DNA of 64,000 nucleotides from an uncultured Bacteroidota bacterium (GTDB lineage: Bacteria > Bacteroidota > Bacteroidia > Bacteroidales > WCHB1-69). The translations under genes were made by a program, and so were the position numbers. The DNA lies in NCBI GenBank assembly GCA_902786595.1, contig CADADB010000003.1, positions 85,206 to 149,205 on the forward strand, written 5' to 3'. The stretch's first letter is position 1; every line of letters starts with the position of its first letter. Under the pieces are notes generated by a model. The model searched no databases and was not told where the DNA came from. It worked only from the letters and a program-made list of their open reading frames with translations. This document shows, one piece after another, positions 1-25,979 of this stretch.

Positions 1-86
1 TGGAAGGTCCTGCAGGAAAGCGAAAGAAGGTTGAAGAAGAGGGCAAGCTGGGCTCTTTCTATAGGGCGTTTGGAAGGTGGGAGTGA
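1..86 (+). CDS. 3' end of a PARG-like macro-domain (TIGR02452-like) protein, partial; paralog of 1175..2155
   Basis: In-frame ...EGPAGKRKKVEEEGKLGSFYRAFGRWE*. I count 7 mismatches in 86 nt against 2070..2155. Confidence 0.6.
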   Translation, partial: EGPAGKRKKVEEEGKLGSFYRAFGRWE

Positions 87-1150: not shown

Positions 1151-1174
1151 AGAAGTTCACCAGAATAGTTGACA

Positions 1175-4952: not shown

Positions 4953-5516
4953 ATGAAAAACAATGAACCGATTCGCCTCTTAGGCGTCCGCGATGATTTT
5001 CGCAAAGTCAACTATGAAGAGTACAAGGACAGTTGTACCAATGAATTACTCCAACAATTCCGTGACGGGAAACTTGATGAAGACACCCCGATAGAGACCC
5101 TGCGCGGTCTGATGTACGGCTATACCTTCACCGATGAGTACGCCCAAAGCTGCCATTATCTAGACAGTCCGTTCAGCGTCCGGTATTGGGAGGATATTCT
5201 TGAGAATGACGATTTTCTTGAGGATGACAATCTTATAGACACTTATCAATACCAGACCGAACAGATTATTGACACAATACTGAGTACTGGTGACGGAAAA
5301 ACACCTGCTACTGCCTTCTGCGTCATCGACGTCTACCAGGAGTACGAGTTGTTGGATGAGATTTTCGTCTATAATGTGCCGAAGATAACCCGACAAAAGT
5401 TATTGGAAGGCGGTATTGACTGCATCGAATTCGAGCCGAACGATTTCGGGGTGGAAAAACTCTATTTCGATGTCCATCGGAGATTTGATGTGGATTATCC
5501 CAGGCCCTCTAAATAG
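4953..5516 (+). CDS. hypothetical protein (possibly DUF4919-like)
   Basis: 187-aa ORF directly after leader copy C. The segment GDGKTPATAFCVIDVYQEYELL is reminiscent of DUF4919, but this is unverified. Confidence 0.5.
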   Translation: MKNNEPIRLLGVRDDFRKVNYEEYKDSCTNELLQQFRDGKLDEDTPIETLRGLMYGYTFTDEYAQSCHYLDSPFSVRYWEDILENDDFLEDDNLIDTYQYQTEQIIDTILSTGDGKTPATAFCVIDVYQEYELLDEIFVYNVPKITRQKLLEGGIDCIEFEPNDFGVEKLYFDVHRRFDVDYPRPSK

Positions 5517-6651: not shown

Positions 6652-7252
6652 AATTGACAAGTTTTTTGGTTGGTAATTTTGTGTGGTTTTAGCAAAAAAC
6701 GTGCCAAAAATGCAAGGTTGTTTTTCGTGTGGAAAATGACAATGAGGTGGGGGCAGTATAAAATAGTGCTTGGTACATGACAAAAATTTCAGTCTGGTGT
6801 AAGTACTTGGTTAACAATGGCAGACAAGTTAAGATCGGTGTTTTGTTTTCATTTCTGCCTCTCAATAGGAACTCCGTCACAATGTCGAGGCCGTAGCGTA
6901 AGATGCTCTTGGCCTTTCTGTCTTGTATGTGTGTGTGTGACACACTTTTTGAAACAGTATCTTCATTTTGCAGTCAATCTGTTTGACTGCAAAATTACAA
7001 AATCAAATCATTGCGCTCTTAAAACTACTCGTAAAAGACTTTATTTCAGCAATTTCAAATAACGATTAGTCCACTTTAACGGGACAATAGTGAAGAGAAT
7101 TAGAATCTTGTCTTGTACTAGGATTGTGAATATTATTGTGTTTTTGGATAATGTAATGACTTTTTGTGCTAGTTGCATTTTTTATAGCATTATTTGTCAT
7201 TTTTAAGCGAAAAAATGCTATTTTTGCACATTAAAATGTTAATTATATTTTT

Positions 7253-9349: not shown

Positions 9350-9379
9350 TCTCTAATTATTTCTAACTGATTGCCAGAT

Positions 9380-10640
9380 AATTGCAGGCAAAAACCTCCG
9401 CAAAAAAGACTTCTGAAATTCCCATTTTGGCCAAGTGGCCGTCTTTGAACTTTTTACGATGAAAATTTCTTGTAACCAATTGTCATTCAAAGAATTATTT
9501 GTATATTTGCCGCAAATTAGAATGGACAATGAATCAGACCAAACCAACCTACAAACAGCAAGGTAACGTCGGGCTTTTTGACAGCGACGAGACAATGGAG
9601 AAATTCAACAAGTTGGACAACCCTTTGGACAAACTCTCAAAAGCGGTTGATTTAGAGATGTTGAGAGGGAATTTGGAGAAGGGGCTTTATAAGGAGAAGT
9701 TCACCAAGGTGGGCGCGAGACCGTATGACTACGTGCTGATGTTCAAGATTGTAGTGCTGCAGCGGATATACTATCTCAGCGACGCGCAGGCGGAATACCA
9801 GATCTGCGACAGGCTCTCGTTCCGCGATTTCCTCGGACTGGCAGCGGCGACAAGGTGCCCGACGAGAAAACAATATGGGCTTTCAAGGAGGAATTGACAA
9901 AGAAAGGGTCTTTTTGAGCAATTGTTCAATGAATTTTTCGCTTTTCTGGAGGAGAACAACCTGATTTTGCATGAGGGCACCATGATAGACGGGAGCTTCG
10001 TGGAGATACCGCGCCAGCACAACACACGCGAAGAGAACAAAATAATCAAGGAAGACAGGGGCGGCGAGTTGTGGAATCCCGAAGAGGGCGACACCGAGGA
10101 GGAGAAGAGGCGCAAAGCCAACAAGAAAAGGCAGAAGGACACGGATGCTCGATGGGTGAAGAAGGGCGGCGAGAAGCATTACGGCTACAAAAGCCACGCA
10201 AAAGTGGACAAGGGAAGCAAGTTTATCAAGAAAGGGGTGACCACAAATGCGTCCGTTTATGACTCCACGCCTGTGAAAGAGCTTGTGGATGAGAATGACA
10301 GGGGTGAAGATTTGTTCGCTGACAGTGCCTAAATCGGCAAAGGGGTGAAGAGGGTGATGCGGAGGTTCGGGATGAAGGACAAGGTGATCAAGCGGAACAC
10401 AAGAGGCAAGAAAATCAGCAAATGGCAGGAGACCATCAACAGAAAGAACTCGAAGCTGCGCGTGAGGGTGGAGCATGTGTTCGGGTTTATGGAAGAGAGC
10501 CTTCACGGAATGTCCAGCCGCGAGGTCGGTTTTGCGCGGAACGCAGCCTATAACACCCTGACAGACCGGGTCTACAACCTGTTCCGGTACGAGCAAGAAC
10601 TATGTCTTAGGATAAATTAACTAATTAAAAATCAAATGGT
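9380..10640 (+). mobile_element. Decayed IS5-family insertion sequence (ends approximate)
   Basis: A GC-richer insert between the R and M genes that carries a fragmented DDE transposase. I could not identify terminal inverted repeats. Confidence 0.55.
9529..10620 (+). pseudogene. IS5-family transposase, disrupted (two frameshifts near 9840-9920, TAA at 10330..10332)
   Basis: Three frame fragments: MNQTKPTYKQQGNVGLFD...DFLGL, GDKVPDEKTIWAFKEELTKKG / EQLFNEFF...HYGYKSHAKVD...FADSA*, and IGKG...RVRVEHVFGFM. Confidence 0.7.
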
Positions 10641-10718
10641 TGAACAAATAGAAATAATAAAAATATTAACAAACTACAAACTTTTGGTTTTTTGCATCCT
10701 TTTAATAGATAAAAGAAT

Positions 10719-10810
10719 TAATTTTGCAGCGTTGTTTGCTTATCTTGATGTTAAAAGGACTTCGCACCAAGGTCGGCGACAGCGCGAAAAAGTAAAAAAG
10801 AAGTCCCCTT
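10719..10810 (+). promoter_or_regulatory. -7 box (taattttg, 10719..10726) plus conserved leader hairpin, copy D
   Basis: Inner stem cttgatg (10744..10750) / caccaag (10765..10771), loop ttaaaaggacttcg. Outer stem gcgttgt (10729..10735) / acagcgc (10779..10785). Confidence 0.6.
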
Positions 10811-10822
10811 ACAAATAGCATA

Positions 10823-11644
10823 ATGGAAAAATCAAAAATAGATAGTTTCATAGGATACATTACCAATGGTGATTGTACGGAAATACTTTCCAAAATAGAA
10901 AGTAATAGTGTTGATTTGGTTGTTACTAGTCCACCATACGATAACTTAAGGGATTATAAAAAGGATTCTACTTGGAACATTGATAGTTTCAAAAAAATAG
11001 CGAAACAACTATATCGAGTTATGAAAGATGGTGGTGTAGTAGTCTGGGTGGTCGGTGATTCTGTTATTAAGGGTAACAAATCACTTACCAGTTTTAGGCA
11101 AGCATTATATTTCCAAGAAATTGGATTTAATATGTATGATGTTATAATTTATGAGAAAGCTGGCACTGCTCCCCCACATAAAAATAGATATTTTAATGCT
11201 TTTGAGTATATGTTTGTACTTTCGAAGGGATTGCCAAAAACAATAAACCTAATAGAAGATAAACCTAATAATTGGGCTAACCATACTACTTTTGGTAATG
11301 TTACTAGAAGGGAACAAGATGGTACGTTAACCCCTAAAGGAAAGAAAGTAATAAAACCTTTTGGCATTAGGACTAATATATGGAGATATAACAATGGCAA
11401 AGGTTTTGCTACTAAAGATAAAATTGCTTATGAACATCCTGCTATTTTCCCAGAAAAGCTAGTAGAAGACCATATTATATCGTGGTCAAATGAAGGAGAT
11501 ATAGTTTTAGATCCTTTTTGCGGGAGTGGTACAGTTGCAAAAGTTGCCACAGAACTAAATAGAAGATGGGTAGGTATAGAAATATCTAAAGAATACTGTA
11601 GAATAGCAAACGAAAGATTAGGATTGGAATGTACGGAACAATAA
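10823..11644 (+). CDS. DNA methyltransferase, N4/N6 beta-class (PF01555-like)
   Basis: VVTSPPYDNLRDY (motif IV) is N-terminal. HPAIFPEKL and VLDPFCGSGT (motif I) are C-terminal. Confidence 0.85.
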   Translation: MEKSKIDSFIGYITNGDCTEILSKIESNSVDLVVTSPPYDNLRDYKKDSTWNIDSFKKIAKQLYRVMKDGGVVVWVVGDSVIKGNKSLTSFRQALYFQEIGFNMYDVIIYEKAGTAPPHKNRYFNAFEYMFVLSKGLPKTINLIEDKPNNWANHTTFGNVTRREQDGTLTPKGKKVIKPFGIRTNIWRYNNGKGFATKDKIAYEHPAIFPEKLVEDHIISWSNEGDIVLDPFCGSGTVAKVATELNRRWVGIEISKEYCRIANERLGLECTEQ

Positions 11645-13017
11645 TTATAAATGACAATATCCAAAATAGTATCAAATTACTAGAATCCAATATTGACAAA
11701 TTGGATGTCAATGGCAATGTCTTTGTTTTAGTAAGAAACGAAGTAGATGCTATTGGTGATGTTACTAATGATTTTCTGGATATAATAGAAGCTGCAGTTA
11801 AATTAAAGTATTTCTATGTGAATACAATAGTAGCACCTACTAAAAACGTAATACCTTCAAATCTGCCAGATAATGTTTTGTATATAGTATGGTTAGCAAA
11901 AGATAAAAACCATTTCTTTAATAAAGATGTAATCCGTGAAAGCCATATCTGGAAAGATGTGGAATGGGGGAAAAGGGCAAAAAATTACAATCCTAAAGGC
12001 AAAGATCCTGGAAATGTTTGGATACCAACTAAGGATGATGGAAAGGCAAATATTACCGAACATATACTTTTAGATACATCTGCTATCATCAACAGATTAC
12101 ACAAATGCTCAACACAAGAAGGTAAAGATACTATATATTTAACGTCAAAGAGTATTAGTAGTTTAAATCTGGATAGTAGTATTACTGTTGTATATAGTAA
12201 TAATGATTATGTCCCACCGATACCTTCAAAGATTTCTTATAGCAAATCTATAAATGATAAGCCGAATAATATCACTGGAAGTGTTATCTGGGGAACTTCT
12301 GAAAATATGGATAAGATACCGGATGGGAGTATAAATGTTGTTATCACATCACCCCCATACTGGGATTTAAAGGATTATTTTAAAAAAGGGCAAATAGGTC
12401 AAGAATCGTATAACACCTACTTAGATAGGCTATATAAGGTATGGGAAGGGTGCTATAATAAACTTACCGAAAACGGCTCGTTATGGCTAAATATAAACAT
12501 AAGAACAAAAAACGGAAAAGTAATACTTATTCCTAGAGATTTTGTTGCACAATGCCGTAAAATCGGATTCCATTATAAAGGTGTTCTGATTTGGCACAAA
12601 TCTTCTGGTATCCCTACACACGATAAGAATATAGTAGATAGACACGAATATGTACTAGTGTTTTCAAAAAGTGAGTACCTGATTATTAATGACTGTATAT
12701 CAAATTTTAAAGATTACAAAAATGAAAGTATTAACGGTGGCTTATTCTGGAATATTAATAGGAAAGCTGGTAGTGTAGGTAAACATTTTATACACCCTGC
12801 AATATATCCGAATGGTTTAGTTTCCCGTATAGTACAAATTACCACAAATGTAAATGATACGGTACTAGACCCATTTTTAGGAAGTGGTACTACTTTAATT
12901 GCCTCCGTATTGGAAGGTAGAAGCTGTATTGGATATGAGTATAATGAAGGATTTAAGGAATTAATATTAAGCAGATTTAATAATGAAGTTGACTTGTTAG
13001 CTAAATTGAAAATATGA
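11629..13017 (+). CDS. DNA methyltransferase, N4/N6 beta-class, with a degenerate N-terminal methylase-like domain
   Basis: C-terminal half has VITSPPYWDLKDY, HPAIYPNGL and VLDPFLGSGT. N-terminal half has YIVWLAKDK...GKDPGNVW...EHILLDT, the same layout without catalytic motifs. Overlaps the upstream gene by 16 nt. Confidence 0.8.
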   Translation: MYGTIIINDNIQNSIKLLESNIDKLDVNGNVFVLVRNEVDAIGDVTNDFLDIIEAAVKLKYFYVNTIVAPTKNVIPSNLPDNVLYIVWLAKDKNHFFNKDVIRESHIWKDVEWGKRAKNYNPKGKDPGNVWIPTKDDGKANITEHILLDTSAIINRLHKCSTQEGKDTIYLTSKSISSLNLDSSITVVYSNNDYVPPIPSKISYSKSINDKPNNITGSVIWGTSENMDKIPDGSINVVITSPPYWDLKDYFKKGQIGQESYNTYLDRLYKVWEGCYNKLTENGSLWLNINIRTKNGKVILIPRDFVAQCRKIGFHYKGVLIWHKSSGIPTHDKNIVDRHEYVLVFSKSEYLIINDCISNFKDYKNESINGGLFWNINRKAGSVGKHFIHPAIYPNGLVSRIVQITTNVNDTVLDPFLGSGTTLIASVLEGRSCIGYEYNEGFKELILSRFNNEVDLLAKLKI

Positions 13018-13157: not shown

Positions 13158-13430
13158 GTGTCACCTTCATCCAACAGATGGGTAGTGTTTCATCCAGTGT
13201 GTCTGGGTTGGTTTTTCAATGAACTGTATGGTCGTGCAAAAATGGTCTTTTTTCGGTTCATTCGACAGTGGGACGCGGCTTGCAGCCAACTGTACCTCTA
13301 CCGTCCTTGTCCCGATTCTCCAAAACTGGCATTCAAGGGCGGCAGATGGATGTGGTCCGGCAAACTGAAACCGGAGTTTGCAAGACTTAGCCTCGAGGAG
13401 GTCTATCTCGAGTTGGTCGGGAAATTGTAA
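13158..13430 (+). CDS. possible truncated gene remnant ending ...LSLEEVYLELVGKL*
   Basis: The last 15 codons recur at 16550..16594 with mostly synonymous differences. The upstream part has no recognisable features. Confidence 0.25.
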   Translation: MSPSSNRWVVFHPVCLGWFFNELYGRAKMVFFRFIRQWDAACSQLYLYRPCPDSPKLAFKGGRWMWSGKLKPEFARLSLEEVYLELVGKL

Positions 13431-13456
13431 CTACGAATCGGCAGGCGTGGAATCTC

Positions 13457-14005
13457 CTACAATCCCTCGATAATCCTGCGCCACGCAGCGGAGAAGTACA
13501 CGTTGTCGGGCACGGGATGCGCCAGGAACATCTTCACCAGCTCCAGACCCGTGTAACCGCATCGTGTAACCTTGTCGGCACCGTTGTGGTAGGCGACCTT
13601 GAACTTCTTGTCGGGCATCTGGCGGGCCACCTCGTACATCTTCCGGATGCTCTCGGTAATCTGCTCGGGGGAGATGCTCTTGTGCCCGTTGTTCCTCCTC
13701 ACCCGCAAGTCCTTGGTCGGTATGGCGTAGGAACGGCCCTGCAGTCCCTCGCCGACACCCCTTATGGCACCGAACTCCCGCACAGCGACGCCTGACGAGC
13801 CGGCCTTCTCGCCCCGGCCGTGTCGGCCCTCGGGGTTGGAACCGAACACGAAAATCGTGTCGTCCTGAGGCGTAATCAACCCAGTGTAATAGTGGTACTG
13901 CGTGCCCTTTCGGTCGGTGAAGGTGCCTTCGGAAAGGTTGATGCCCATCTTGTCGAGGGCGGAGAACAGATTCTTCAGAAGCTCTCTTGATGCTTTTTTA
14001 TCCAT
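13457..14005 (-). CDS. conserved phage/ICE-type protein with FVFGSN-x4-HG and SYAIPTK motifs (LOG/SLOG-like Rossmann fold?)
   Basis: 182 aa. IFVFGSNPEGRHGRGEKAGSSGVA...GEGLQGRSYAIPTKD. The family assignment is from memory only. Confidence 0.4.
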   Translation of the reverse strand: MDKKASRELLKNLFSALDKMGINLSEGTFTDRKGTQYHYYTGLITPQDDTIFVFGSNPEGRHGRGEKAGSSGVAVREFGAIRGVGEGLQGRSYAIPTKDLRVRRNNGHKSISPEQITESIRKMYEVARQMPDKKFKVAYHNGADKVTRCGYTGLELVKMFLAHPVPDNVYFSAAWRRIIEGL

Positions 14006-14081
14006 AAATGTGATATTGGTGGTTTGTTGAAAACGGATTGTTTGCTATTTGTGTAACAAAAACCGTGCCAAAATACACTCT

Positions 14082-14216
14082 CTCTTGACGATGCGCGCGT
14101 TTGCGGCGTTGAAGACAGCGCAGTTTTTCAGTCCGTCAGGCAGTTTCGGCGGCGGGGTGCCGTTCAATGCTGTAATACTCTGGATAGTGCTCCCGGATCA
14201 TTTCGTGGAGTTTCAT
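14082..14216 (-). pseudogene. Internally deleted remnant of a second NADAR-ART gene pair
   Basis: 14141..14220 aligns to 20161..20241 (NADAR 5' end, MKLHEMIREHYPEYYSIER). 14082..14141 aligns to 19127..19189 (ART 3' end, DGLKNCAVFNAAN). About 970 bp is missing relative to the intact copy. Confidence 0.75.
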
Positions 14217-14414
14217 AAAATGCTGGTTTTATGGTAGTTGTTAAAAATTCTTGGTCGGACTGCAAAAAAAAGTGCAAAATAATTACTCCGAAAAGGGAAC
14301 ACGGGCGGTTAGGAATATGCAGGGCGATGTTGCCGCTGAGTAACAAACCCCAAAAACATTGGGCAATAATGCGAAAAAACAATATAGTATATAAATCTTA
14401 AAACCAAATCACGT

Positions 14415-15272
14415 ATGAGAAATCCCATTACAACATTCATCGACATCCGCAAGTCCGAAACATTGAGCCGCTTGTCCAAGGACATCAAGAGATACCCGCT
14501 TCTATCCTTGGAAGAGGAGACTGCGCTTGCTAGGAGGGTCAAGTCGGGGGACCGGAACGCTGCGGACAAATTGGTCATGTGCAACATGCGGCTGTTGTTT
14601 CGCATAGCCGGGGGTTACCAAGGACTGGGGGTGCCTTTGGAGGACCTGATTTCCGAGGGCTGCTTTGGGCTGATTAGTGCGGCCTCCCATTTTGACGTGA
14701 ATTGTGGTTGCAGGTTCTCCACGTTTGCCGCACGCTGCATCCACCATGCCATTCAAATGGCCGTCCCTGAGTTGAGAAACATGGTGCGCATCCCGCAGAA
14801 AAAGTCTTACGACAGCTGGTCGCTAAGGGAGGCATCCGACCGACTGTGGCAGGAACTTCGACGTACACCCACCACGCAGGAAATCGCCGCAGCCACCGGC
14901 GTTTCTGAGGACAAGGTGGCCGAGCTCCTACGTCTCGATGGGAGAGCAGTGTCTATTGAAACTCCTGACGATTCGGATAGCGAATCGCAGCCGCAATGCA
15001 CCCTCGCCCTTGCCTGTGAGGAAGGCGCAGACTGGAACCTGATGCGGGAATCGACAAAACAGGCCGTCAAAATGGCACTTGACAAGCTGCCGGAGACGGA
15101 GGCCAAGGTGTTGAACCTGTCGTTTGGCATAGACACGCTTTGCGAACGCACCGACAGGGAGGTGGGGGAGATGGTTGGCCTGTCGAGAGAGCGGGTACGC
15201 CAAATCAAGGTGTCGGCACTGAAGCGCTTGAGAAAAAACGGGGATCTCGATTTCCTGCGCCCTGCCGCGTAG
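14415..15272 (+). CDS. sigma-70 family RNA polymerase sigma factor
   Basis: 285 aa. Region 2 (LVMCNMRLLFRIAGGY...DLISEGCFGLISAASHFD...FSTFAARCIHHAI) and a region 4 HTH (REVGEMVGLSRERVRQIKVSALKRL). Confidence 0.8.
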   Translation: MRNPITTFIDIRKSETLSRLSKDIKRYPLLSLEEETALARRVKSGDRNAADKLVMCNMRLLFRIAGGYQGLGVPLEDLISEGCFGLISAASHFDVNCGCRFSTFAARCIHHAIQMAVPELRNMVRIPQKKSYDSWSLREASDRLWQELRRTPTTQEIAAATGVSEDKVAELLRLDGRAVSIETPDDSDSESQPQCTLALACEEGADWNLMRESTKQAVKMALDKLPETEAKVLNLSFGIDTLCERTDREVGEMVGLSRERVRQIKVSALKRLRKNGDLDFLRPAA

Positions 15273-16540: not shown

Positions 16541-16691
16541 TTTTTTTATCTTAGTCTTGAGGAGGCCTGTCTTGAGTTGGTTGGGAAATTGTAGCTAATC
16601 CAGCAATCCTGTTTTTATGCTCAATATAGTTATGTACTCAAGTTTCGCAAGTATGTCTCAGACTGTTTGAGGAAATTTGTCTTTGAACGGA

Positions 16692-17028: not shown

Positions 17029-17458
17029 TCACTTCCTTTTGCACATATTTCTCAGATTATTTATAATATCGTCTGCGTTTACACCAACATCAAAATTTGA
17101 ATCAACATTTATTGCACGCATTGGCTCGTTAGATTCATCTATTGGGACTTTAGACATATATTCTTTGACTTGTTCTTGTGTCAAATCACCCAATGTGTTC
17201 ATGTATTCTTCAATTGGCAGTTTGTTGATCCATTCCACATCCAAACCGCCGTCTTCTTTCAATAATGCCATAATCAATTTCTTTTGGGTGAGTTTTGTTG
17301 AATTCATCAGAGGTGACATATCCGTGGGATAGATACCATTCTATATCACACCGAACATCCTCATTATTTTCGTTTAAAAGCCGTAACTGTTCTGTTGTCA
17401 CAGTCTCTTTTACATCATTCCTTATGATGTGATGTAATCTCTTTTTCCCCATATCCAA
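17029..17458 (-). pseudogene. hypothetical gene split over two overlapping frames (17210..17458 and 17029..17319)
   Basis: The two ORFs overlap by ~110 nt in different frames on the same strand. This fits a frameshift or sequencing error, or two real small genes. Confidence 0.35.
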
Positions 17459-17475: not shown

Positions 17476-17730
17476 TTATCTGTAAGAATGACTCAATGAG
17501 ACACCTTGTTTCTTGTAATGCCTGATAATAGCATCTTCCAAGTCAATAAGAATTTCAGCAAGATTCAATGTGTCGCCGACGGGAACCGACACTCCGCAAT
17601 CAGAACAAAGCTCGTTGGTCTCCTCATCATACCAAATTTCAGAACATTGGATTTTATCATCATTCCAATTAAGAAGAGAAGGGAAGACACCCATGTCTTT
17701 CAGTATTTTGCTTATTTCTTTCCTGTCCAT
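17476..17730 (-). CDS. small hypothetical protein (84 aa), last gene of the minus-strand operon
   Basis: MDRKEISKILKDMG... starts 11 nt after the ARH stop. The longer upstream extension overlaps ARH and was rejected. Confidence 0.45.
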   Translation of the reverse strand: MDRKEISKILKDMGVFPSLLNWNDDKIQCSEIWYDEETNELCSDCGVSVPVGDTLNLAEILIDLEDAIIRHYKKQGVSLSHSYR

Positions 17731-17740
17731 AAAACAGTTG

Positions 17741-18583
17741 TTATTCTCCCCAGTACCTCTCAAGTTGCTCCATCCGGCTGCCATAAGCTGACTTTTCTGC
17801 CATTCCGATAATGGTTTCCTTGAAATACTGCGGGATGATGCTTGTGGCTTCAATGATAATGTCATCGGGTATTCCATAGAAGGCCTCCGCGATACCACCG
17901 GCGATGCAGGCTTGCGTGTCGCTGTCACCTCCAAGAGATACCGCCAACCGCAGGGTGCTCTCATAGTCCGTGCTGTCGAGGAATGCAATGATCGACTCCG
18001 GCACCGATTTCTGACACGACACCTCAAAACCATACGAAGGTCGGATTTGGTCGCAAGTCCTGTTGAGGTCATACTCGAACTTCTTTGAGATATAGTCTCT
18101 TATCGCTTCCTTGCCGGCTCCGTTTCGTGCCATATAGATGGCCGCAGCCGTGGCTTGCGCCCCCTTGATGCCCTCAGGATGGTCGTGCGTGATGCTGGCC
18201 GAGATCCCCGCCACACGTTCGGTCTCTTCCAGCGAATCAAACATCCAACCGACCGCGCTGACACGCATGGCCGAGCCGTTGCCGAAACTGTTGTATGGTT
18301 TCCGCTTGCCATCAGAGAAGATCGCTTGAGGGACAAATAGCCAGCGGAGGAAATGAGGACCATACCCGACGTGGGTATTCAAATTGCCTAATTTCACCAT
18401 CTTCTCTTCCAGGACTTCGTGTGTATTCATCGGGTCCTCGAGAAGCCATTCCGCCACGGCCATGGTCATCACCGAATCGTCTGTGTAACAACTTTCTGGC
18501 TGGAACAGGTCAAATTCCGTTGTTTTGATGTTGTTGAACTCGTAACAAGAGCCAACAATGTCTCCAATAATTGCTCCTAACAT
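17741..18583 (-). CDS. ADP-ribosylglycohydrolase (ARH/DraG) family protein
   Basis: MLGAIIGDIVGSCYEF...YTDDSVMTMAVAEWL...GNGSAMRVSAVGW...SLGGDSDTQACIAGGIAEAFYG are typical ARH metal-site motifs. Confidence 0.85.
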   Translation of the reverse strand: MLGAIIGDIVGSCYEFNNIKTTEFDLFQPESCYTDDSVMTMAVAEWLLEDPMNTHEVLEEKMVKLGNLNTHVGYGPHFLRWLFVPQAIFSDGKRKPYNSFGNGSAMRVSAVGWMFDSLEETERVAGISASITHDHPEGIKGAQATAAAIYMARNGAGKEAIRDYISKKFEYDLNRTCDQIRPSYGFEVSCQKSVPESIIAFLDSTDYESTLRLAVSLGGDSDTQACIAGGIAEAFYGIPDDIIIEATSIIPQYFKETIIGMAEKSAYGSRMEQLERYWGE

Positions 18584-18637
18584 AATACTTGTTTTTTTGT
18601 TTTTTCACGCGGCAATACTACGCTTTTTTTCAGAATA

Positions 18638-19054
18638 TTACTGATGCATATCCCCATCTATCATCCCTTTGCTTCCCATAAAGCCCACACTGTGGGAGGC
18701 GATAGCGGCTGCCGTGTTCAAGAATGCGCAAACATCCGCTTCCGTGAGGTCTGCAATGGAGCGTTTGCCCGATTTGCAGAGCTCGGCAATGAAGACCGAG
18801 GTGGTCCAGTCGCCCGCCCCTTCCCAGTCCACCACGTCGGGGTTGGGCACCGGGGCGATCTTCTTCCAACCCTGCCCACAGAGGTTGAATTCCATCCCGT
18901 TTTCGCCCATAGTTCGGATGAAAAGCTTGTCGGGGAGCTCGTCCACAAAAGGGTTGCGCTTCTTGGCCGTGTCGAATCCCTCCGGATACTTTCGTTGATA
19001 GATGATGTCCAGGGCAAAATTTCCCGTACCGAGTACTCGTTTGTTTGTTGTCAT
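18638..19054 (-). CDS. PfkB/ribokinase-like mini-protein (apparently missing the central half)
   Basis: 138 aa. The N-terminal strand VLGTGNFALDIIY joins almost directly to the C-terminal module ...VVDWEGAGDWTTSVFIAEL...AAAIASHSVGFMGSKG (GAGD anion-hole motif). Confidence 0.5.
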   Translation of the reverse strand: MTTNKRVLGTGNFALDIIYQRKYPEGFDTAKKRNPFVDELPDKLFIRTMGENGMEFNLCGQGWKKIAPVPNPDVVDWEGAGDWTTSVFIAELCKSGKRSIADLTEADVCAFLNTAAAIASHSVGFMGSKGMIDGDMHQ

Positions 19055-19059
19055 AATGC

Positions 19060-19629
19060 CTATACGATTTGTTTGCTGTTCTCCACTAACACATATTTCT
19101 TTCCCTTCAGTTCCACCTCAATGCGCTCTCGCTTGACGATGCGCACGTTGGCGGCGTTGAAGACGGCGCAGTTTTTCAGTCCGTCAGGCTTCGACTGCGC
19201 CTGAGGCCACACGTTGCAGAAGACGCCGATGCCGTCCAGGAACTCCGCCGCGGCCCTCTCCGACTCCACATCCACCGTTTCGCCTCCCGTCAGCGTCAAG
19301 CCGAGCCATTTGCGGAACTCCTTGCCTTGCAAGGTTTTCTCCTTAGGAATCGGTTTGCCCAACTTGGTCTCGACACGTTCCACGATGGATGCGGGCACTG
19401 GTTTCGCCGACACAATGTGGTTGTCATCGGTCAGGCCTGGAATCTCCACCGTGTAAAGATAATGGCTCTTGGCCAAGGGTTGGTGACGGGGTTGCGAATA
19501 GTGCACCGCGCTGGCTTCCGACTCGGTGAGATAGACGCCAAATCCGAATTTGATGCCGGTGCCGTCACCGGCTTTGCTGAGGTCGAACTGGTCGAACAAC
19601 TCGGGCGAACCGTGATAAAAAGTAGTCAT
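19060..19629 (-). CDS. PARP-like (H-Y-E class) ADP-ribosyltransferase domain protein
   Basis: TFYHGS (H6), GFGVYLTESEASAVHY (Y33) and HYLYTVEI (E62) fit the H-Y-E ART core, like ART modules of polyvalent proteins. Does not fit DarT (DUF4433). Confidence 0.6.
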   Translation of the reverse strand: MTTFYHGSPELFDQFDLSKAGDGTGIKFGFGVYLTESEASAVHYSQPRHQPLAKSHYLYTVEIPGLTDDNHIVSAKPVPASIVERVETKLGKPIPKEKTLQGKEFRKWLGLTLTGGETVDVESERAAAEFLDGIGVFCNVWPQAQSKPDGLKNCAVFNAANVRIVKRERIEVELKGKKYVLVENSKQIV

Positions 19630-20237
19630 AATTTATGGATTAACTTGAATGATTCAATGAATGTTAATGTGTCTTCGGGCAAAGAGTATTCCAGTTTGCC
19701 GTTGTCACGCAGTTCCATCAACAGGCGACCTAAAAGGTTGGGGCCCACATATTCGTCGTCGCGCTTCACCACGCCCCAGCTGTCAGCATCGCGGCCCTTC
19801 TTGTGGGAAGTCTCGTCCTCGACGATGAATTTGCCCCGGCTGCGCTCCAGCTCCTTACGGAAGACTTCGCTCTGCTCATACTTCAGTACGAGACAGAATT
19901 TCATCGCATCCACCACCATACTGGGCCAATGGTCGTGGAACCATTCGGGATGGACTTTGTACAGATGTTTCACGTGCATTTTAAGCCCCAGTCCACCGTG
20001 TTGCGACATAATGTCGCGGTAGCCCTCCGTGTTATCTGAACGAAGCTTCAGGATGTGGAAGAGCCGTTCGGTGCAGTCGAAAGTGACACCATTGACCACG
20101 ATGGGTGTCTGGGCGAAATTGCCCAAGATGCCCCATTCATCCTTCGTCTTGCGGATGCAGACGGTTTTGGTGGCGGGGTACCGTTCAATGCTGTAATACT
20201 CGGGATAGTGCTCCCGGATCATTTCGTGGAGTTTCAT
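19626..20237 (-). CDS. NADAR (YbiA/DUF1768) family protein
   Basis: 203 aa. GILGNFAQTPIVVNGVTFDCTERLFHILK...GPNLLGRLLMELR. The stop overlaps the ART start (ATGA). Confidence 0.7.
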   Translation of the reverse strand: MKLHEMIREHYPEYYSIERYPATKTVCIRKTKDEWGILGNFAQTPIVVNGVTFDCTERLFHILKLRSDNTEGYRDIMSQHGGLGLKMHVKHLYKVHPEWFHDHWPSMVVDAMKFCLVLKYEQSEVFRKELERSRGKFIVEDETSHKKGRDADSWGVVKRDDEYVGPNLLGRLLMELRDNGKLEYSLPEDTLTFIESFKLIHKL

Positions 20238-20264
20238 AAAAGGTTGATTTTATGGGATGTAAGG

Positions 20265-20615
20265 TTAATAATCGTTGCTTGATTGCTTGTTGACGGGGTG
20301 CGCGTCCGCCCATCTCACGCCTTCGAGGAATGCCCTCCCGTAATGGCTGTTTATGGGATGCGGGGCGATGGCCTCGCACACCTGCAGGTCTCGTAGGGAG
20401 ATATGCAGCATTTCATAAATCTGTTCCTTGCTGATGGGATTCCCGTTCAGCTTGTAGTGGCCGTAGTAAAAGGTGACTGTATCGTCCCCTTTCACCCATC
20501 CGTTGCCCACCATGAATTGGTGGTACATTTTCCAGCCGTCACGTTCAAACGCCTCGCTGATTAGCATGAAGTTCAGTGAAGCTAAAGATTGATAAGGGTT
20601 GTTTTTTTTCATCAT
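20265..20615 (-). CDS. hypothetical protein
   Basis: 116-aa ORF. 4-nt overlap with the upstream gene. Confidence 0.45.
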   Translation of the reverse strand: MMKKNNPYQSLASLNFMLISEAFERDGWKMYHQFMVGNGWVKGDDTVTFYYGHYKLNGNPISKEQIYEMLHISLRDLQVCEAIAPHPINSHYGRAFLEGVRWADAHPVNKQSSNDY

Positions 20616-21034
20616 TTCACCACCTCCTTGAACATTGGTGCGGCTTTCACGCAGAGCGCATACACCTCGTCTTCAACCACCGCTCCCGTGCTTTTGTCGA
20701 AAGAGAGACTCCACCACGGCACCGGTTGTGTCGAACTGTGGTCCCACTTGGCCAATTGGCTTTGGTGTCTGTTGACCTCTTGGGTTAAAAGCTCAAGGAG
20801 CTTCGGCGACACGTAGGCGGTGACGTTCTCGTCTTTCTTGTCGGCAGACTTGTCAGATGTTTCACAGTTTCCATTGTCATAATGGTAAATGCACTGAATG
20901 TGAAGGTGTTCGCTCTGTGCCGGACGCACTAAACGATACTCTTCCTCGCTGATCAGGCCGAGCGTTTTGCAGCCTTCAGCAATCATGCCCATTGCCAGGC
21001 AGATGTCTTTTAAGAATGTCATATTTTTTTCCAT
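20612..21034 (-). CDS. hypothetical protein (first gene of the minus-strand operon)
   Basis: 140-aa ORF. No motif recognised. Confidence 0.45.
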   Translation of the reverse strand: MEKNMTFLKDICLAMGMIAEGCKTLGLISEEEYRLVRPAQSEHLHIQCIYHYDNGNCETSDKSADKKDENVTAYVSPKLLELLTQEVNRHQSQLAKWDHSSTQPVPWWSLSFDKSTGAVVEDEVYALCVKAAPMFKEVVK

Positions 21035-21359: not shown

Positions 21360-22748
21360 ATGACACTTATTAAGTCCATTTCCGGAATCCGCGGAACCAT
21401 CGGAGGAACTGTCGGCGAGAACCTTACACCCGTTGATGTCGTGAAATTTACAACGGCTTTCGCCACTTTCCTGCTTGAAAAGAGAGAGGAAACTAACCCT
21501 ATGCGCATGGTGGTCGGGCGCGATGCCCGTATCTCCGGCGATATTGTGAACCGCTTGGTCTGCAGTACGTTGCAGAGCATGGGCATTGACGTGATCGACC
21601 TCGGCCTCTCCACGACCCCGACAACGGAGATGGCGGTCATCCAACAAAAAGCCGACGGCGGCATCATCATCACCGCCAGCCATAACCCGATGCAGTGGAA
21701 TGCGCTGAAGCTGCTCAACAGCACCGGTGAGTTCGTCTCCGGCGAGGAGGCCAAGCGTATTGTGGAACTTACAGAATCGGATGAATTAAACTATGCAACG
21801 ATCGACAAATTAGGTAGTTATACTCTGTATGAAAATGCTATCAAGGATCATGTGGATGCCATCCTGAATCTGCCGTTGGTGGACAAGAACGCCATCACGA
21901 AGGCCAACTTCAAGGTCATTTTGGACACGGTGAACTCCACGGGGGCATTGGCGCTTCCAGTGCTTCTCAAAGCGTTGGGCGTCAACGATGTGACGGTGCT
22001 TAACAGCGAGATGAACGGTGTCTTTTTCCACAATCCCGAACCGATCCCTGAGAACCTCGCGGGCATCTGCAACGCCATGAACCGCTCCAACTACGATGTC
22101 GGCTTCGTAGTTGATCCTGATGTGGATCGGTTGGCCATTGTCAAGGAAGATGGCACGCTGTTTGTCGAGGAGAACACCCTGGTGGCCGTGGCCGACTATG
22201 TGCTGCAACATACGCCCGGCAACACCGTCTCCAACCTCTCGTCTTCCCGTGCGTTGAAAGACGTAAGTGACAAGTATGGCGTTACTTACACGCCTTCCGC
22301 TGTGGGCGAGGTCAACGTGGTAGAGATGATGAAGAAGACCAACGCCGTCATCGGTGGTGAGGGCAACGGAGGGGTCATCTATCCCGAGCTGCACTATGGT
22401 CGCGACGCGCTCGTGGGCATCGCGCTCTTCCTCACCTACATGGCCAAGAGCGGCAAGAGCTGCAGCCAGATCCGCGCCCTCTATCCTGACTACTGCATCG
22501 TGAAGAAGAAAACCGAACTCGACAGTTCCGTTGACTTGAAGGGGATTCTGAACAAGATTGCCGAGAAATACGCTAATTATCAGGTAAATACGGTCGATGG
22601 TGTACGCGTCGATTTCGAGGACAGCTGGGTGCACGTGCGCAGTTCCAACACCGAACCCATCATGCGCATCTACGCCGAAGCCCTCACCCCGCAGGTCGCC
22701 GAGAACATCGCCAACAAGCTGATGGCGGACATACGGGAACTAATGTAG
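21360..22748 (+). CDS. glmM: phosphoglucosamine mutase
   Basis: MTLIKSISGIRGTIGG and the phosphoserine loop TASHNPMQWNALK. 462 aa. Confidence 0.85.
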   Translation: MTLIKSISGIRGTIGGTVGENLTPVDVVKFTTAFATFLLEKREETNPMRMVVGRDARISGDIVNRLVCSTLQSMGIDVIDLGLSTTPTTEMAVIQQKADGGIIITASHNPMQWNALKLLNSTGEFVSGEEAKRIVELTESDELNYATIDKLGSYTLYENAIKDHVDAILNLPLVDKNAITKANFKVILDTVNSTGALALPVLLKALGVNDVTVLNSEMNGVFFHNPEPIPENLAGICNAMNRSNYDVGFVVDPDVDRLAIVKEDGTLFVEENTLVAVADYVLQHTPGNTVSNLSSSRALKDVSDKYGVTYTPSAVGEVNVVEMMKKTNAVIGGEGNGGVIYPELHYGRDALVGIALFLTYMAKSGKSCSQIRALYPDYCIVKKKTELDSSVDLKGILNKIAEKYANYQVNTVDGVRVDFEDSWVHVRSSNTEPIMRIYAEALTPQVAENIANKLMADIRELM

Positions 22749-22820
22749 AATGCTGAATGATGAATGCTGAATGCTGAATGCTGAATGATGAATGTAGAAT
22801 GCTGAATGATGAATGATGAT
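22748..22820. repeat. ~10 tandem heptamers (GAATGCT/GAATGAT)
   Basis: Read directly. Starts at the glmM stop codon. Confidence 0.85.
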
Positions 22821-22821
22821 T

Positions 22822-22873
22822 GGGTCGAAGCACCATTCCCCCCTTTAGGGGGGATGCCCGAAGGGCAGGGGGG
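22822..22873 (+). repeat. REP-like double-hairpin element (cccccc-ttta-gggggg; gccc-gaa-gggc)
   Basis: ggtcgaagcaccattcccccctttaggggggatgcccgaagggcagggggg. Related copies at 24364, 45175, 47806 (x3, inverted) and 49475. Confidence 0.8.
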
Positions 22874-22912: not shown

Positions 22913-24277
22913 ATGACCAAACGAACACATATCCGGATAATTCCTGTGCTGCTGGCCCTGGTTATGGGGACGGCGGGGATGGTGTGCGCACAGGTGGATG
23001 AGCCATGCGGGTGTATGACCTCCGTGCGAAATCTGATCCATTATAATATCCAAATAATTGACAAGGGCATCATATCGAATCATAAGATTCTGTATTTGGA
23101 AGGTTATCAATGTGGAACTCCCGTTTATCTGGACAGCGCTGTTGTCAAGGGAGGCAAAGCTAAATTCAAAAGCAAGCATCCCGTCGAAAAGGGTGTATAT
23201 CATTTAGTCTATGAAAAAGGCGGGGCGCCGGTTTGGGACATCATGTTGCGAAATTCTCATAATAGCTTGATGACATACGGCAATGGGTACAATAAAGTTG
23301 GAAATTTTGCTTGTAAATCAGGAAGTTATGAGGTAAATTACGCGAATTTGTCTGATGAGATTCGTCGTGATTCAAGAGCCATCATTTCTGTGGATGCTTT
23401 CCGGCAGATAATAGAGAAATATTCCGATGCACCTGGCAGTTCTGTGGAACAGTATTATCTGTACGACGTTGCACTTTCTGCATACTTGTCTGTCCTCCAA
23501 CAGAATCCGCAGTTATCCATACCTAAATCTATTTACGACTATGTGATCTCGAAATTGAACCTTTCAGATCCTCTGATCTGGAATTCCAAGTCTGCGATTC
23601 ATCCGTTTATTTCTAAATATTTGACAGATAATCAGATATATGACACGGAATATTTGATTCCCGCTATAGATAGTCTGTTGGCGGGTTGCTGTAGGCCCGG
23701 TTTCTTGGCAACTTATCTTTTCAATGCCTATTGGGCATCGGGAGAACCTGCTTACGATCCAATTCTGTTGCATCTTTATGACAAATACAATCTTCCCTGT
23801 TGCTTGGGCGACCGTGCGCGTATAGCCAAACGGAAAATAGACGTTGTCCGCAAGCTCGCCCCCGGTGCGCAAATCCCCGAACTCACCGCTTACGACATTG
23901 ACGGCAAACAACACTCCACCAACGAGATACAGACGAAATACACGATTCTCTGGTTTTGGGATCCCGACTGCGACCACTGTCAGGAACAGACGCCGATTTT
24001 GCACGACCTATACCAAGAAAAAGCTGACGAGCTTGATTTTGAGGTCTTTGCCGTGGAGGTCAACGACGACTATGACCGCTGGACGGCCTTCTCCGAGAAA
24101 CACGGTCTCAGCGATTGGATCAATCTTAGCACTTCTATGGGCGAAACTAGTGAGGATTTCATCGAGTATTTCGATATTGTCACCACGCCCGTGATTTTGT
24201 TGATAGATAATGAAAAAAATCATGTAATAATTGCACGTCAAATTACGTTAGATGAGATTATGCGGTTGATGCGATGA
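22913..24277 (+). CDS. secreted thioredoxin-fold (TlpA/DUF5106-like) protein
   Basis: Signal peptide. WFWDPDCDHCQ CxxC motif near the C-terminus. Paralog of 24450..25979. Confidence 0.65.
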   Translation: MTKRTHIRIIPVLLALVMGTAGMVCAQVDEPCGCMTSVRNLIHYNIQIIDKGIISNHKILYLEGYQCGTPVYLDSAVVKGGKAKFKSKHPVEKGVYHLVYEKGGAPVWDIMLRNSHNSLMTYGNGYNKVGNFACKSGSYEVNYANLSDEIRRDSRAIISVDAFRQIIEKYSDAPGSSVEQYYLYDVALSAYLSVLQQNPQLSIPKSIYDYVISKLNLSDPLIWNSKSAIHPFISKYLTDNQIYDTEYLIPAIDSLLAGCCRPGFLATYLFNAYWASGEPAYDPILLHLYDKYNLPCCLGDRARIAKRKIDVVRKLAPGAQIPELTAYDIDGKQHSTNEIQTKYTILWFWDPDCDHCQEQTPILHDLYQEKADELDFEVFAVEVNDDYDRWTAFSEKHGLSDWINLSTSMGETSEDFIEYFDIVTTPVILLIDNEKNHVIIARQITLDEIMRLMR

Positions 24278-24357
24278 GACGATGAAGCGATGAGACGATG
24301 AAGCGATGAGACGATGAAGCGATGAGACGATGAAGCGATGAGACGATGAGACGATGA
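24273..24357. repeat. ~10 tandem octamers (gatgagac/gatgaagc)
   Basis: Read directly. Overlaps the stop codon. Confidence 0.85.
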
Positions 24358-24363
24358 AAAAAT

Positions 24364-24413
24364 GGTCGAAGGACCATTCCCCTTCTTTTAGAAGGGCTGC
24401 CCGAAGGGCGGGG
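24364..24413 (+). repeat. REP-like double-hairpin element
   Basis: ggtcgaaggaccattccccttcttttagaagggctgcccgaagggcgggg. Confidence 0.75.
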
Positions 24414-24449
24414 TAGTAATAAAACGATAAACAAATATAGTACAGAAAT

Positions 24450-25979
24450 ATGAAAAAAACGTTTATTCTTCTGTTGTTGTCCAGTTTCTTCATAGGCATT
24501 TCTGGAATATCCGCCCAGAACAATGTGCCGAAGAACCTGCAGAAGTCGAGGAACAATCCGGCCAATTATAGAGACAAAGACGGTCACGAACTGATATTTA
24601 ACGTCAAAGATTCCAAGGACACTCTGGTGTATTTGGTAATTCATTATAATGAGAAGCTGATTCTCAAGGATTCCGTGAAACCGGCGGCGAAAGGTAAATT
24701 TGTGTTCAAAGGCACTGACCGCTACGATGACGGCATGTATTCGCTGGTTTCGATGGACAAGAAGCTGTATCTGAACTTCATACTTGACAACAATCAGCAT
24801 TTCGAGTACAATTTGGACACCACGATGAATCCGGAGAATTTCTCGGTGAAGAACTCGCCGGAGAATGACGAGATGCTTCGTTTCCAGAAAAAAACCTCCC
24901 AGGCCTCCCAGCTGGCCAACGAATGGGCCAAAAAACGCAAAGCGTTTGAAGAGGCAGGCAATACCGACAGCGTCAACTATTACAAGGAGAAGCTGTCCGG
25001 AATCAACGACGAGATGACCGCTTTCATTGAGGATTTGATTGCCAGAAATCCGGATTTCCTCTTCTCTAAGATGCAGAAATCTTACCAGAGTATTGATGTC
25101 CCGGAATTAAAAATGGACGACGGAACCCCCGATTACCAAAAACAGGCGGCATACTATCGTCTGCATTATTGGGACAACTTTGATCTCGGGGATCATCGTT
25201 TCATCTATATTCCCTCTTTTGAACCAAAGTTGAAGGATTATTTCCAGAAAATACTCTATCACCAGGAAGTGGACACCATCAACAAATACATCGATATTTT
25301 CTTGAAGAAGACGGAGAAGGATACGTTCATGTACCACTATTGTTGCGACTGGCTCTCATACCAGTTCGAGACCAGCAAAGTGATTGGCCATGATGCGGTG
25401 TTCTATCATATTGCCAAGACGAACCAGCTTCAGGGTAAGTGCTATTGGTTGGACGAGGACATCATTGCGAAATACCAGAAACGTATCGCACGTATTGAAC
25501 CCATTCTGATTGGGAAAATCGCCCCGGAGCTCTTTATTCCCGACACCACCTTGACGGATGATATGACCCAATGGCATTCATCGTACAGAATTAACAAGCC
25601 CTATACGATTCTCTGGTTCTACGACCCTGACTGCCCGACCTGTAAGAAGGAGTCCAAGAAGTTGCGGGAAGTGTATGATTCGTTGCAGGCCATCGGCAAG
25701 CGTAATTTCGAAGTCTATGCCGTCGGTAACGATTCCGACATCGACCGCTGGAAAAAGTATGTGAAAGAAAACAACTATCCTTGGATTCAAGTTGGAGGCA
25801 ATAAGGGCAACATGGACTACCTTGAGTATTTCAACATCTACGAGATGGGCAATCCGGCCATGTTTATCCTTAACAGTCGCCACGAAATCATCCTCAACAA
25901 ACGTATTGATATGCACAACATCCCGCAGTTCCTCGAGGAGTACGAGAAGATGGAGGAGGCGAAACGGAAGCAGGAGTGA
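24450..25979 (+). CDS. secreted thioredoxin-fold (TlpA/DUF5106-like) protein
   Basis: Signal peptide MKKTFILLLLSSFFIGISGISAQ. WFYDPDCPTCKKE CxxC motif. Confidence 0.65.
   Translation: MKKTFILLLLSSFFIGISGISAQNNVPKNLQKSRNNPANYRDKDGHELIFNVKDSKDTLVYLVIHYNEKLILKDSVKPAAKGKFVFKGTDRYDDGMYSLVSMDKKLYLNFILDNNQHFEYNLDTTMNPENFSVKNSPENDEMLRFQKKTSQASQLANEWAKKRKAFEEAGNTDSVNYYKEKLSGINDEMTAFIEDLIARNPDFLFSKMQKSYQSIDVPELKMDDGTPDYQKQAAYYRLHYWDNFDLGDHRFIYIPSFEPKLKDYFQKILYHQEVDTINKYIDIFLKKTEKDTFMYHYCCDWLSYQFETSKVIGHDAVFYHIAKTNQLQGKCYWLDEDIIAKYQKRIARIEPILIGKIAPELFIPDTTLTDDMTQWHSSYRINKPYTILWFYDPDCPTCKKESKKLREVYDSLQAIGKRNFEVYAVGNDSDIDRWKKYVKENNYPWIQVGGNKGNMDYLEYFNIYEMGNPAMFILNSRHEIILNKRIDMHNIPQFLEEYEKMEEAKRKQE

Follow-up and report, generated by a model that had tools for sequence, protein, structure and literature searches.

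NADARs are N-glycosidases that free guanine and cytosine bases of ADP-ribose, and serve as the antitoxins of DarT1 (PMC11543638, PMC12945103); in the DarTG1 pair it is the N-linked ADP-ribosylation of guanine that the NADAR reverses. YarT, a small H-Y-E ADP-ribosyltransferase (ART) of myxobacteria, likewise has a YbiA-like NADAR as its antitoxin (Cihlova et al, 2024, PMC11125620). The ADP-ribosylation of nucleic acids and its reversal by NADARs have been recognised only recently in bacterial warfare and defence, and are known so far from DarT1 and YarT. Here we analyse a 64,000-nt stretch of contig CADADB010000003.1, from an uncultured Bacteroidota bacterium (the window, with which a set of related loci, given L-numbers, was compared). 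It encodes a small ART of the ART-PolyVal type next to a YbiA-type NADAR. These two genes form the obligatory core of a cassette that recurs across genomes, and the copy in the window is a partly decayed example of it.

The GTDB was scanned, with one genome per species, using a narrow alignment of the ART as seed. This gave 57 loci, almost all in metagenome-assembled genomes of gut or rumen Bacteroidales, with a few in Kiritimatiellae or Verrucomicrobia bins. Linkage was counted in the 42 loci that have a full-length ART and at least 1.5 kb of sequence on either side. All 42 have a NADAR gene on the same strand, so that the adjacency pointed out in a preliminary description of this DNA is conserved in species-level genomes. 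The two genes are no more than 300 nt apart in 34 of these loci; in the other eight they are mostly separated by a PfkB gene. Start and stop codons of the pair overlap in the window, L009 and L072, and in five representative protein clusters the two domains are fused in a single chain, the ART N-terminal and the NADAR C-terminal, indicating that the two activities are functionally coupled. Other genes join the pair less regularly. A full-length PfkB kinase is found within 3 kb in 18 of 35 loci, PARG in 12, and ARH, an A1S_2505-like protein and a sigma factor in three each; ARH, cREC and Nudix are less frequent additions than PfkB or PARG. Searches seeded with PfkB retrieve PARG-NADAR-PfkB-ART operons with overlapping stop and start codons, and a fuller operon, cREC-PfkB-NADAR-ART-ARH-PARG-NUDIX, adjoins a tyrosine integrase. 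In about half of the species the ART and NADAR have no kinase, cREC or Nudix gene within 6 kb, so the pair must be able to work alone. Together the invariable linkage and the fusions indicate that the NADAR acts on, or together with, the product of the ART.

Because NADARs are known as the antitoxins of DarT1 and YarT, the reading that we favour, tentatively and somewhat short of calling it probable, is that of a toxin-antidote style conflict module, in which a writer and an eraser would operate on an N-linked acceptor, probably a nucleobase, and which usually lies in defence or variable islands. The ART would link ADP-ribose from NAD+ by an N-glycosidic bond to a macromolecule of the cell or of an invader, the likeliest acceptor being a DNA or RNA nucleobase by analogy with DarT1 and YarT. 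The NADAR would hydrolyse that bond so that the producer is protected, and PARG and ARH would be extra erasers for other linkages. The fold of the ART, the family assignments, the conserved ART-NADAR linkage, the fusions and the deletions are observed here, and we infer the NAD+-dependent transfer, the N-linked target on nucleic acid, the toxicity and the protection by the NADAR.

ORF calling places the pair in the window within a string of seven consecutive open reading frames (ORFs), between 17476 and 21034, with the same coordinates and spacing as described before:

20612-21034, minus strand: 140-aa ORF, without a Pfam, PHROG or PADLOC match
20265-20615, minus strand: 116-aa ORF, without a Pfam, PHROG or PADLOC match
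19626-20237, minus strand: NADAR, YbiA-type, predicted N-glycosidase (eraser), 203 aa, core component (Pfam NADAR, 2.5e-12)
19060-19629, minus strand: ART, ART-PolyVal type (putative writer), 189 aa, core component (weak Pfam matches and predicted fold)
18638-19054, minus strand: PfkB-family kinase remnant with an internal deletion, 138 aa (Pfam PfkB, 1.4e-5)
17741-18583, minus strand: ARH/DraG-family ADP-ribosylglycohydrolase, 280 aa, occasional accessory (Pfam ADP_ribosyl_GH, 4.1e-37)
17476-17730, minus strand: 84-aa ORF, without a Pfam, PHROG or PADLOC match, 39% GC

There is a 4-nt overlap between the 140- and 116-aa ORFs, the stop codon of the NADAR and the start codon of the ART share ATGA, and the remaining gaps are of 5, 10, 27 and 54 nt; the tight packing and the domain calls are thus as the preliminary description had them. 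An identical string of genes is present in L094, from an independent sequencing run, and the arrangement is therefore not an artefact of assembly. Exact matches in public assemblies were found for all eight of the window proteins looked up, namely the seven ORF products and a 182-aa protein encoded elsewhere in the window.

The ART gives weak matches to Pfam (ART-PolyVal 7e-5, DUF3990 4.5e-4, PARP 0.013), and its score against ART-PolyVal (PF18760), 24.0 bits, is below the gathering cut-off of 31.2 bits; many homologues at 70-85% identity have a precomputed match to PF18760. An AlphaFold2 model built on 29 homologues (pLDDT 94.3) has the ART fold that had been proposed for the 189-aa protein. 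The top match of the model in the PDB, using Foldseek, is the pre-ejectosome protein of cyanophage A4 (9k3a_B, E 3e-5), with diphtheria toxin, cholix toxin and tankyrase among the further matches at probabilities of 0.9-1.0, and in BFVD, a collection of structures predicted for viral proteins, its matches are phage ART-PolyVal proteins and large polyvalent proteins, with E-values down to 1e-11 and TM of 0.6-0.7. By sequence and modelled structure it is a member of the ART-PolyVal family. The Pfam scan gave no match to DarT (E≤0.1), HYD1/Tox-ART-HYD1, RES or Tpt1, and no DarT structure is among the fold matches listed. A DarT-like identity is ruled out by the lack of any DarT match at that threshold, in agreement with the earlier judgement.

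Residues H6, G7, G29, Y59 and G135 are invariant in the 29 homologues, which extend down to 29% identity, and Y33 (26/29), A41 and Y44 (28/29) are nearly so. The signature of the NAD+ pocket, HG[ST]...GxY[LV][TS]...A..Y, is intact, and in the alignment with PARP12, PARP16 and tankyrase H6, Y33 and Y44 fall on their His and their first and second Tyr. Of the candidate triad H6/Y33/E62 put forward previously, the first two members are supported by this conservation. E62 closes the third strand; aligned with PARP12 it falls upstream of the third-triad position, and the 29 homologues have E there in 23 sequences, Q in four and D in two. By strand order the canonical position of the catalytic glutamate, at the start of the strand after the ARTT region, would correspond to N153 instead (N 21, H 3, D 3, E 1, Y 1). 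On strand order and the PARP12 alignment E62 is thus probably not the canonical catalytic residue, the assignment to N153 following from the topology of the model. The ART also contains a helical insert of about 55 residues. In L074 (ART 6952-7545) and L075 a divergent ART paralogue, at 41% identity, is accompanied by the same NADAR (76%) and PfkB (82%). Retention of these partners with a swapped ART would suggest a diversification of the effector as in conflict systems. A second ART paralogue is also present in L004, L037, L047 and L053.

A HMMER scan of 1.8 billion representative proteins returned 518 relatives of the ART, some of them domains within proteins of 1,800-4,800 residues. Since the polyvalent proteins of phages and conjugative elements carry domains of the ART-PolyVal family, and the top PDB match of the model is a phage ejection protein, the cassette could be thought of as a counter-defence toolkit of a mobile element, in which defence proteins of the host would be the targets of the ART, while NADAR, PARG and ARH would undo any ADP-ribosylation that the host imposes, their linkage and fusion being an instance of the way in which polyvalent proteins bring independent anti-host domains together. 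DarT1 is neutralised by phage NADARs (PMC11825919), the island in the window contains orphan DNA methyltransferases, a sigma factor and a transposase fragment, and FtsK/SpoIIIE and YAcAr genes are found near the cassette in L071. We consider this very unlikely all the same. No close relative was found among the 2.9 million viral contigs of IMG/VR, the INPHARED phages or the PLSDB plasmids, where there were only distant N-terminal matches to polyvalent/DUF3990 proteins, which argues that host chromosomes, and not known mobile genomes, are the carriers of the cassette; nor is an origin of this exact family in phages or plasmids supported. Several loci are small chromosomal islets without mobility genes. 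Furthermore, ART and NADAR are linked in 42/42 loci as against 9%-51% for the other toolkit genes, a tightness that suggests dependence rather than a set of independent effectors.

A profile of the ART-linked NADARs has E. coli YbiA (2b3w, 5.6e-16) as its sole PDB match, and on this profile they belong to the YbiA-like group and not to the DarT1-linked, BC4488-like type. In NCBIfam the best match of the window NADAR is DS32_2, the NADAR of the DS-32 system, at 85.4 bits against a cut-off of 240 bits. The full set of loci also contains observations that weigh against the toxin-antidote reading. In four assemblies (L076-L079; for example L076 4986-6163) the codon of the nearly invariant W104 of the NADAR is changed from TGG to TGA, and the ART beside this nonsense allele is 95% identical to that of the window with all of its conserved residues kept; in the same loci the PfkB gene is cut off after about nine codons by a deletion. 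Half-fragments of NADAR also make up a large share of the contigs in its 90% cluster, and the W104 change is seen in many members of the cluster. Across species an intact ART is never without a NADAR (42/42), but within the window's own lineage the rule is broken by L076-L079. That a toxin should be kept intact while its obligatory antitoxin is lost is unexpected, and speaks against a classical addictive pair. Paralogous erasers, PARG and a second NADAR (NADAR2), may cover in trans for the truncated protein; both are encoded about 17 kb from the window cassette, and L018 has NADAR2 as its sole NADAR partner. Neither is the order of the genes fixed, with the ART before the NADAR in 25 of the adjacent pairs and after it in nine. 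The putative toxin is therefore mostly first, and the antidote-first order of the window, which had been read as a hallmark of toxin-antitoxin pairs, is that of the minority. Covalent ART-NADAR fusions would be unusual for a toxin and its antitoxin and would suit consecutive steps of a pathway just as well, and a simple pair of this kind has no use for a kinase, cREC or Nudix partner. With an asparagine seemingly at the canonical glutamate position, strong transferase activity of the ART is not assured. Finally, PADLOC recognised no known system at the locus, giving only weak, non-diagnostic matches to PDC-M42C (NADAR) and PDC-M13B (ART). The toxin-antitoxin interpretation of the preliminary description is thus weakened in its classical addictive form, both by the W104 stop beside an intact ART and by the single-chain fusions.

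Much of this would sit comfortably with a non-toxic pathway for the synthesis or processing of ADP-ribose derivatives, in which several enzymes would act in sequence on a small molecule or on nucleic-acid ends, with the NADAR as a downstream step. Such a pathway might take the form of KptA-like 2'-phosphate or end processing with clean-up of ADPr>P, or of clearance and recycling of ADP-ribose conjugates and signals after an NAD+-directed attack. Besides the ART-NADAR fusions, a fusion of helix-turn-helix, HAD phosphatase and ART domains was found among the ART relatives, and an NT5C nucleotidase gene adjoins the cassette in L009 and L076. The PARG-NADAR-PfkB-ART operons and the fuller one with cREC, ARH and Nudix read naturally as enzyme series, the order of the genes is flexible, and null alleles of single components are tolerated with the rest intact (the PfkB deletion, the NADAR nonsense codon and an ARH deletion). 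In addition, cREC, Nudix, NADAR and kinases have been predicted around RNA-end processing by an ART or sirtuin (PMC9503650), and D. radiodurans has an operon of ligase, PARG and polynucleotide kinase (PMC11833690). Against this, about half of the species have the pair with none of these accessory enzymes nearby, the ART has no similarity to Tpt1/KptA in Pfam or Foldseek searches, and PfkB kinases work on small molecules rather than polynucleotide ends; the setting in defence islands and the swapping of ART paralogues also fit a conflict better. We therefore regard a pathway as unlikely, though it is the most credible of the alternatives to the toxin-antidote module.

The PfkB kinase is a frequent third partner and a new element of the cassette, which is unexplained under every reading. 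In the window it is not the PfkB-like mini-protein that had been described but the remnant, left by an in-frame deletion, of a kinase that is conserved at a full length of about 310-320 aa. In a blastn comparison with L009 (about 97% identity between the two ARTs), the gene lacks 510 bp (L009 10696-11205), and in the protein alignment residues 1-40 are joined in frame to the last 98 or so residues with about 175 central residues gone. The match of the remnant to PF00294 covers only positions 217-290 of the 302 in the profile, at 25.0 bits against a cut-off of 25.8 bits, and the same deletion allele is present in the independent run L094. The full length, about 310 aa, is retained in more than 100 related clusters that are 77-89% identical to the L009 kinase. 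Full-length relatives have both PF00294 and the GAGD motif of the anion hole, whereas the window protein is without a complete kinase fold. In sequence searches the matches of the partner are marginal (sulfofructose kinase, 0.003; ribose-1-phosphate kinase, 4e-4) and the structure predicted for the full-length protein from a shallow alignment has a pLDDT of 57.

One way to accommodate the kinase would be for ART, NADAR and PfkB, often with PARG, to constitute an undescribed three- or four-enzyme conflict system that couples phosphorylation to ADP-ribosylation, which we think improbable, and more so than a non-toxic pathway. The kinase would then make a phosphorylated acceptor, or phosphorylate the ADP-ribose adduct against the erasers of an invader, and the ART-NADAR fusions would be self-limiting versions of the same chemistry. 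If true, it would be a widespread and uncharacterised mechanism of immunity or warfare in gut and rumen Bacteroidales, going beyond a DarTG-like pair. For an ART to run in reverse and rebuild NAD+ from ADPR-1''-phosphate is thermodynamically unfavourable. A NARP-like rebuilding of NAD+ from ADPR-1''-phosphate made by the kinase was set aside on the grounds that about half of the species have no kinase and that the published NARP enzymes are unrelated (PMC13464706).

The ARH of the window is nearly full length, matching ADP_ribosyl_GH (PF03747) over residues 1-238 with 128.9 bits against a cut-off of 26.2, and phrog_6572 at 2e-53. It adjoins the ART and NADAR in L013, L015, L021, L028 and L069-L071; in L009 all that is left of the gene is a 64-nt remnant of its 3' end, with an A1S_2505-like gene downstream. 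At its 5' end (18477-18602) the window gene resembles the ARH genes of Porphyromonas phages phage005a and phage005b and Bacteroides phage Versailles, with stretches of 70-126 bp that are 74-79% identical at the nucleotide level.

The remaining three ORFs do not belong with these genes, so the seven cannot be taken as a single system, as they had been at first: the 140-, 116- and 84-aa ORFs have no counterpart in any of the 79 related loci compared. Upstream of the NADAR, similarity to other genomes reaches no further than about 14-18 nt beyond the start codon, which places the 140- and 116-aa ORFs outside the cassette. Members of the 90% cluster of the 116-aa ORF are named "hypothetical protein" and come from metagenome-assembled genomes of Bacteroidales. 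The 84-aa ORF, at 39% GC compared with 50-56% in the six ORFs upstream, is of a different origin from the cassette. Judged by these sequence comparisons, all three are lineage-specific passengers. Downstream of the 84-aa ORF, two overlapping, out-of-frame minus-strand ORFs of 82 and 96 aa (17029-17458, 36% GC) look like one frameshifted gene. A scan for sigma-70-type promoters and terminators did no better on the window than on shuffled sequence, the promoter model being unsuited to Bacteroidetes.

The neighbours of the cassette are heterogeneous and often defence-like, which speaks for a role in conflict. They include MmeI/Eco57I-type restriction-modification, Z1, SLFN/AlbA_2, T5orf172 and AAA_14/DUF4143 genes, a reverse transcriptase (RVT_1), SbcCD, a UvrD/PD-(D/E)XK pair and an nSTAND NTPase. 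Sigma-factor genes occur near the cassette in L001, L024, L062, L063, L069 and L071 and at 14415-15272 in the window; they are small and sigma-70-like, sometimes accompanied by an AAA ATPase and a Sigma54_DBD protein, and their recurrence hints at dedicated transcriptional control.

The window also contains the scar of a second cassette, together with further genes of the same kinds:

14072-14234, minus strand: second-cassette scar, an out-of-frame junction of the NADAR 5' end (about 95 nt, start codon 14216) with 70 nt of the ART 3' end
13457-14005, minus strand: A1S_2505-family protein, 182 aa (NCBIfam A1S_2505_Nterm, 5.5e-24; phrog_2072, 4e-26)
2199-2696, plus strand: NADAR2, the second YbiA-type NADAR (Pfam NADAR, 2.2e-40)
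1169-2155, plus strand: PARG (Pfam PARG_cat_microb, 1.2e-22)
3-83, plus strand: PARG C-terminal fragment at the window edge

The scar is made up of two direct repeats of parts of the intact cassette, D1 (14137-14234 = 20158-20255, 91%) and D3 (14072-14141 = 19120-19189, 91%), and is supported by tblastn. A comparable co-deletion of NADAR and ART in L059 begins within about 8 nt of the same NADAR position, so that two independent deletions took the NADAR plus the catalytic half or more of the ART, a pattern that counts in favour of the toxin-antidote module. The divergent sigma-70 gene at 14415-15272 adjoins the scar, and the A1S_2505-family gene follows it; L009 11647-12446 matches window 14072-13268 at 89.6%. 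The 182-aa A1S_2505-family protein has the motif FVFGSNPEGRHGRG and a pI of 9.7, and is a recurrent neighbour of the cassette (L009, L038, L047, L061). In L018 the order is PARG-NADAR2-PfkB-ART, followed by a DUF4919 gene that matches window 4953-5516. The PARG-NADAR2 and DUF4919 flanks are thus shared between L018 and the window, which suggests that one cassette has replaced another between common flanks.

The surrounding 21 kb is a mosaic of a PARG fragment, PARG-NADAR2, DUF4919, LRR, Sel1, HNH, two DNA methyltransferases, a transposase fragment and a sigma factor, and glmM at 21360 marks the ordinary chromosome. A low-GC block at 7253-13017 (about 32%) carries a 698-aa HNH protein, a DUF772 transposase fragment (9499-9897) and two adjacent N6_N4 DNA methyltransferases (10823-13017), and is possibly a restriction-modification-type insert. 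A 48-nt direct repeat, 85% identical, is present at 13386-13433 and 16550-16597, at the ends of two otherwise unrelated segments; translated, it looks like the C-terminal end of an ABC ATPase. The DNA just downstream of glmM, ahead of two genes for thioredoxin-like lipoproteins, has short tandem-like repeats with a 14-nt period at 22742-22822 (AATGCTGAATG...), and minus-strand ORFs at 24248-24800 have repetitive translations of the HRFIVSS type.

Islands of this composition raise the question of whether the cassette is an orphan from interbacterial competition, the ART being the detached toxic tip of a secreted or polymorphic effector and the NADAR an immunity enzyme, stockpiled among other acquired immunity genes. 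The window and related islands are mosaics of PARG, two NADARs, ARH, Sel1, BspA-type LRR, DUF4919 and hydrolases, and one of these islands abuts a tyrosine integrase. Homologues of the ART are also found at the C-terminus of larger proteins (672-1309 aa) or fused to Sel1 repeats, and the swapping of ART paralogues would be in keeping with such an origin. Immunity to ART effectors is conferred by PARG and ARH (PMC11833690), and there is an NCBIfam match of the Tri1 type. The 189-aa ART itself has no trafficking or delivery domain, and no type VI secretion system (T6SS), Rhs, PAAR or adaptor genes were present in the contexts read. Moreover, toxins and their immunity proteins are not normally fused, and many loci are two- or three-gene islets among housekeeping or phage-defence genes. 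This origin seems to us a shade less probable than a phosphorylation-coupled system, if not quite as remote as a counter-defence toolkit.

With the cassette, a third and structurally distinct ART family would be paired with a NADAR. It is abundant in the Bacteroidales of gut and rumen, where we count more than 500 protein clusters and 57 species-level genomes, and it involves a family, ART-PolyVal, that appears untouched by experiment, its name being found in just two of the papers searched. Testable leads to new targets or chemistry come from the tight linkage of ART and NADAR, their natural fusions and the high conservation of the PfkB partner. The copy in the window is itself of smaller value, being partly decayed, with several of its striking features turning out to be passengers or the products of deletion.

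A literature search found no paper that brings NADAR, ART and PfkB kinase together as a single system. The preliminary description had known of no system with the composition of this locus, and this holds for the whole but not for the pairing of a NADAR with a non-DarT ART, which has already been published as YbiA-YarT (PMC11125620). As in the cassette, a YbiA-type NADAR there stands beside a small, stand-alone, non-DarT ART of the diphtheria-toxin-like clade (H-Y-E/D/Q). The NADAR of YbiA-YarT is upstream, as it is in the window, whereas elsewhere the cassette mostly has the ART first. By domain matches the two ARTs are set apart, YarT grouping with HYD1/Tre23-like domains and the window ART matching ART-PolyVal, DUF3990 and PARP but not Tox-ART-HYD1. 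The cassette further differs in the helical insert of its ART, in its frequent PfkB and PARG and in its fusions.

DarT1-NADAR (DarTG1; Schuller et al, 2023, PMC11543638) similarly combines an ART writer and a NADAR eraser in one operon in a defence context, but the cassette ART has no DarT domain and the profile of its NADAR matches YbiA, not the solved DarT1-linked NADARs. The ART-PolyVal domains (PF18760), which give the best sequence and structure matches to the ART, sit in giant, injected, multidomain proteins, whereas the cassette ART is a stand-alone chromosomal protein of 189 aa that is linked to a NADAR across species. In the DS-32 anti-phage system (10.1101/2025.01.08.631726) a NADAR has a different partner enzyme, a phosphoribosyltransferase rather than an ART, and the Pfam scan found no phosphoribosyltransferase among the cassette genes. 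ARH and PARG shield cells from ART toxins by removing the modification in Tre1-Tri1 and in PARG immunity against RhsP2 (PMC11833690); those toxins are secreted T6SS effectors with delivery domains, in contrast to the cassette loci read, which have no secretion genes. The accessory mix of the fuller cassettes resembles that of the RNA-end processing sets, in which KptA or a sirtuin is found with cREC, 2H, Nudix and a kinase (PMC9503650). Both these sets and the D. radiodurans operon (PMC11833690) differ from the cassette, which has an ART unlike Tpt1/KptA, a PfkB-type kinase and no ligase. Measured against these systems, what the cassette adds to the known pairing of a non-DarT ART with a NADAR is its conserved PfkB partner, the ART-NADAR fusions and its breadth in Bacteroidales.

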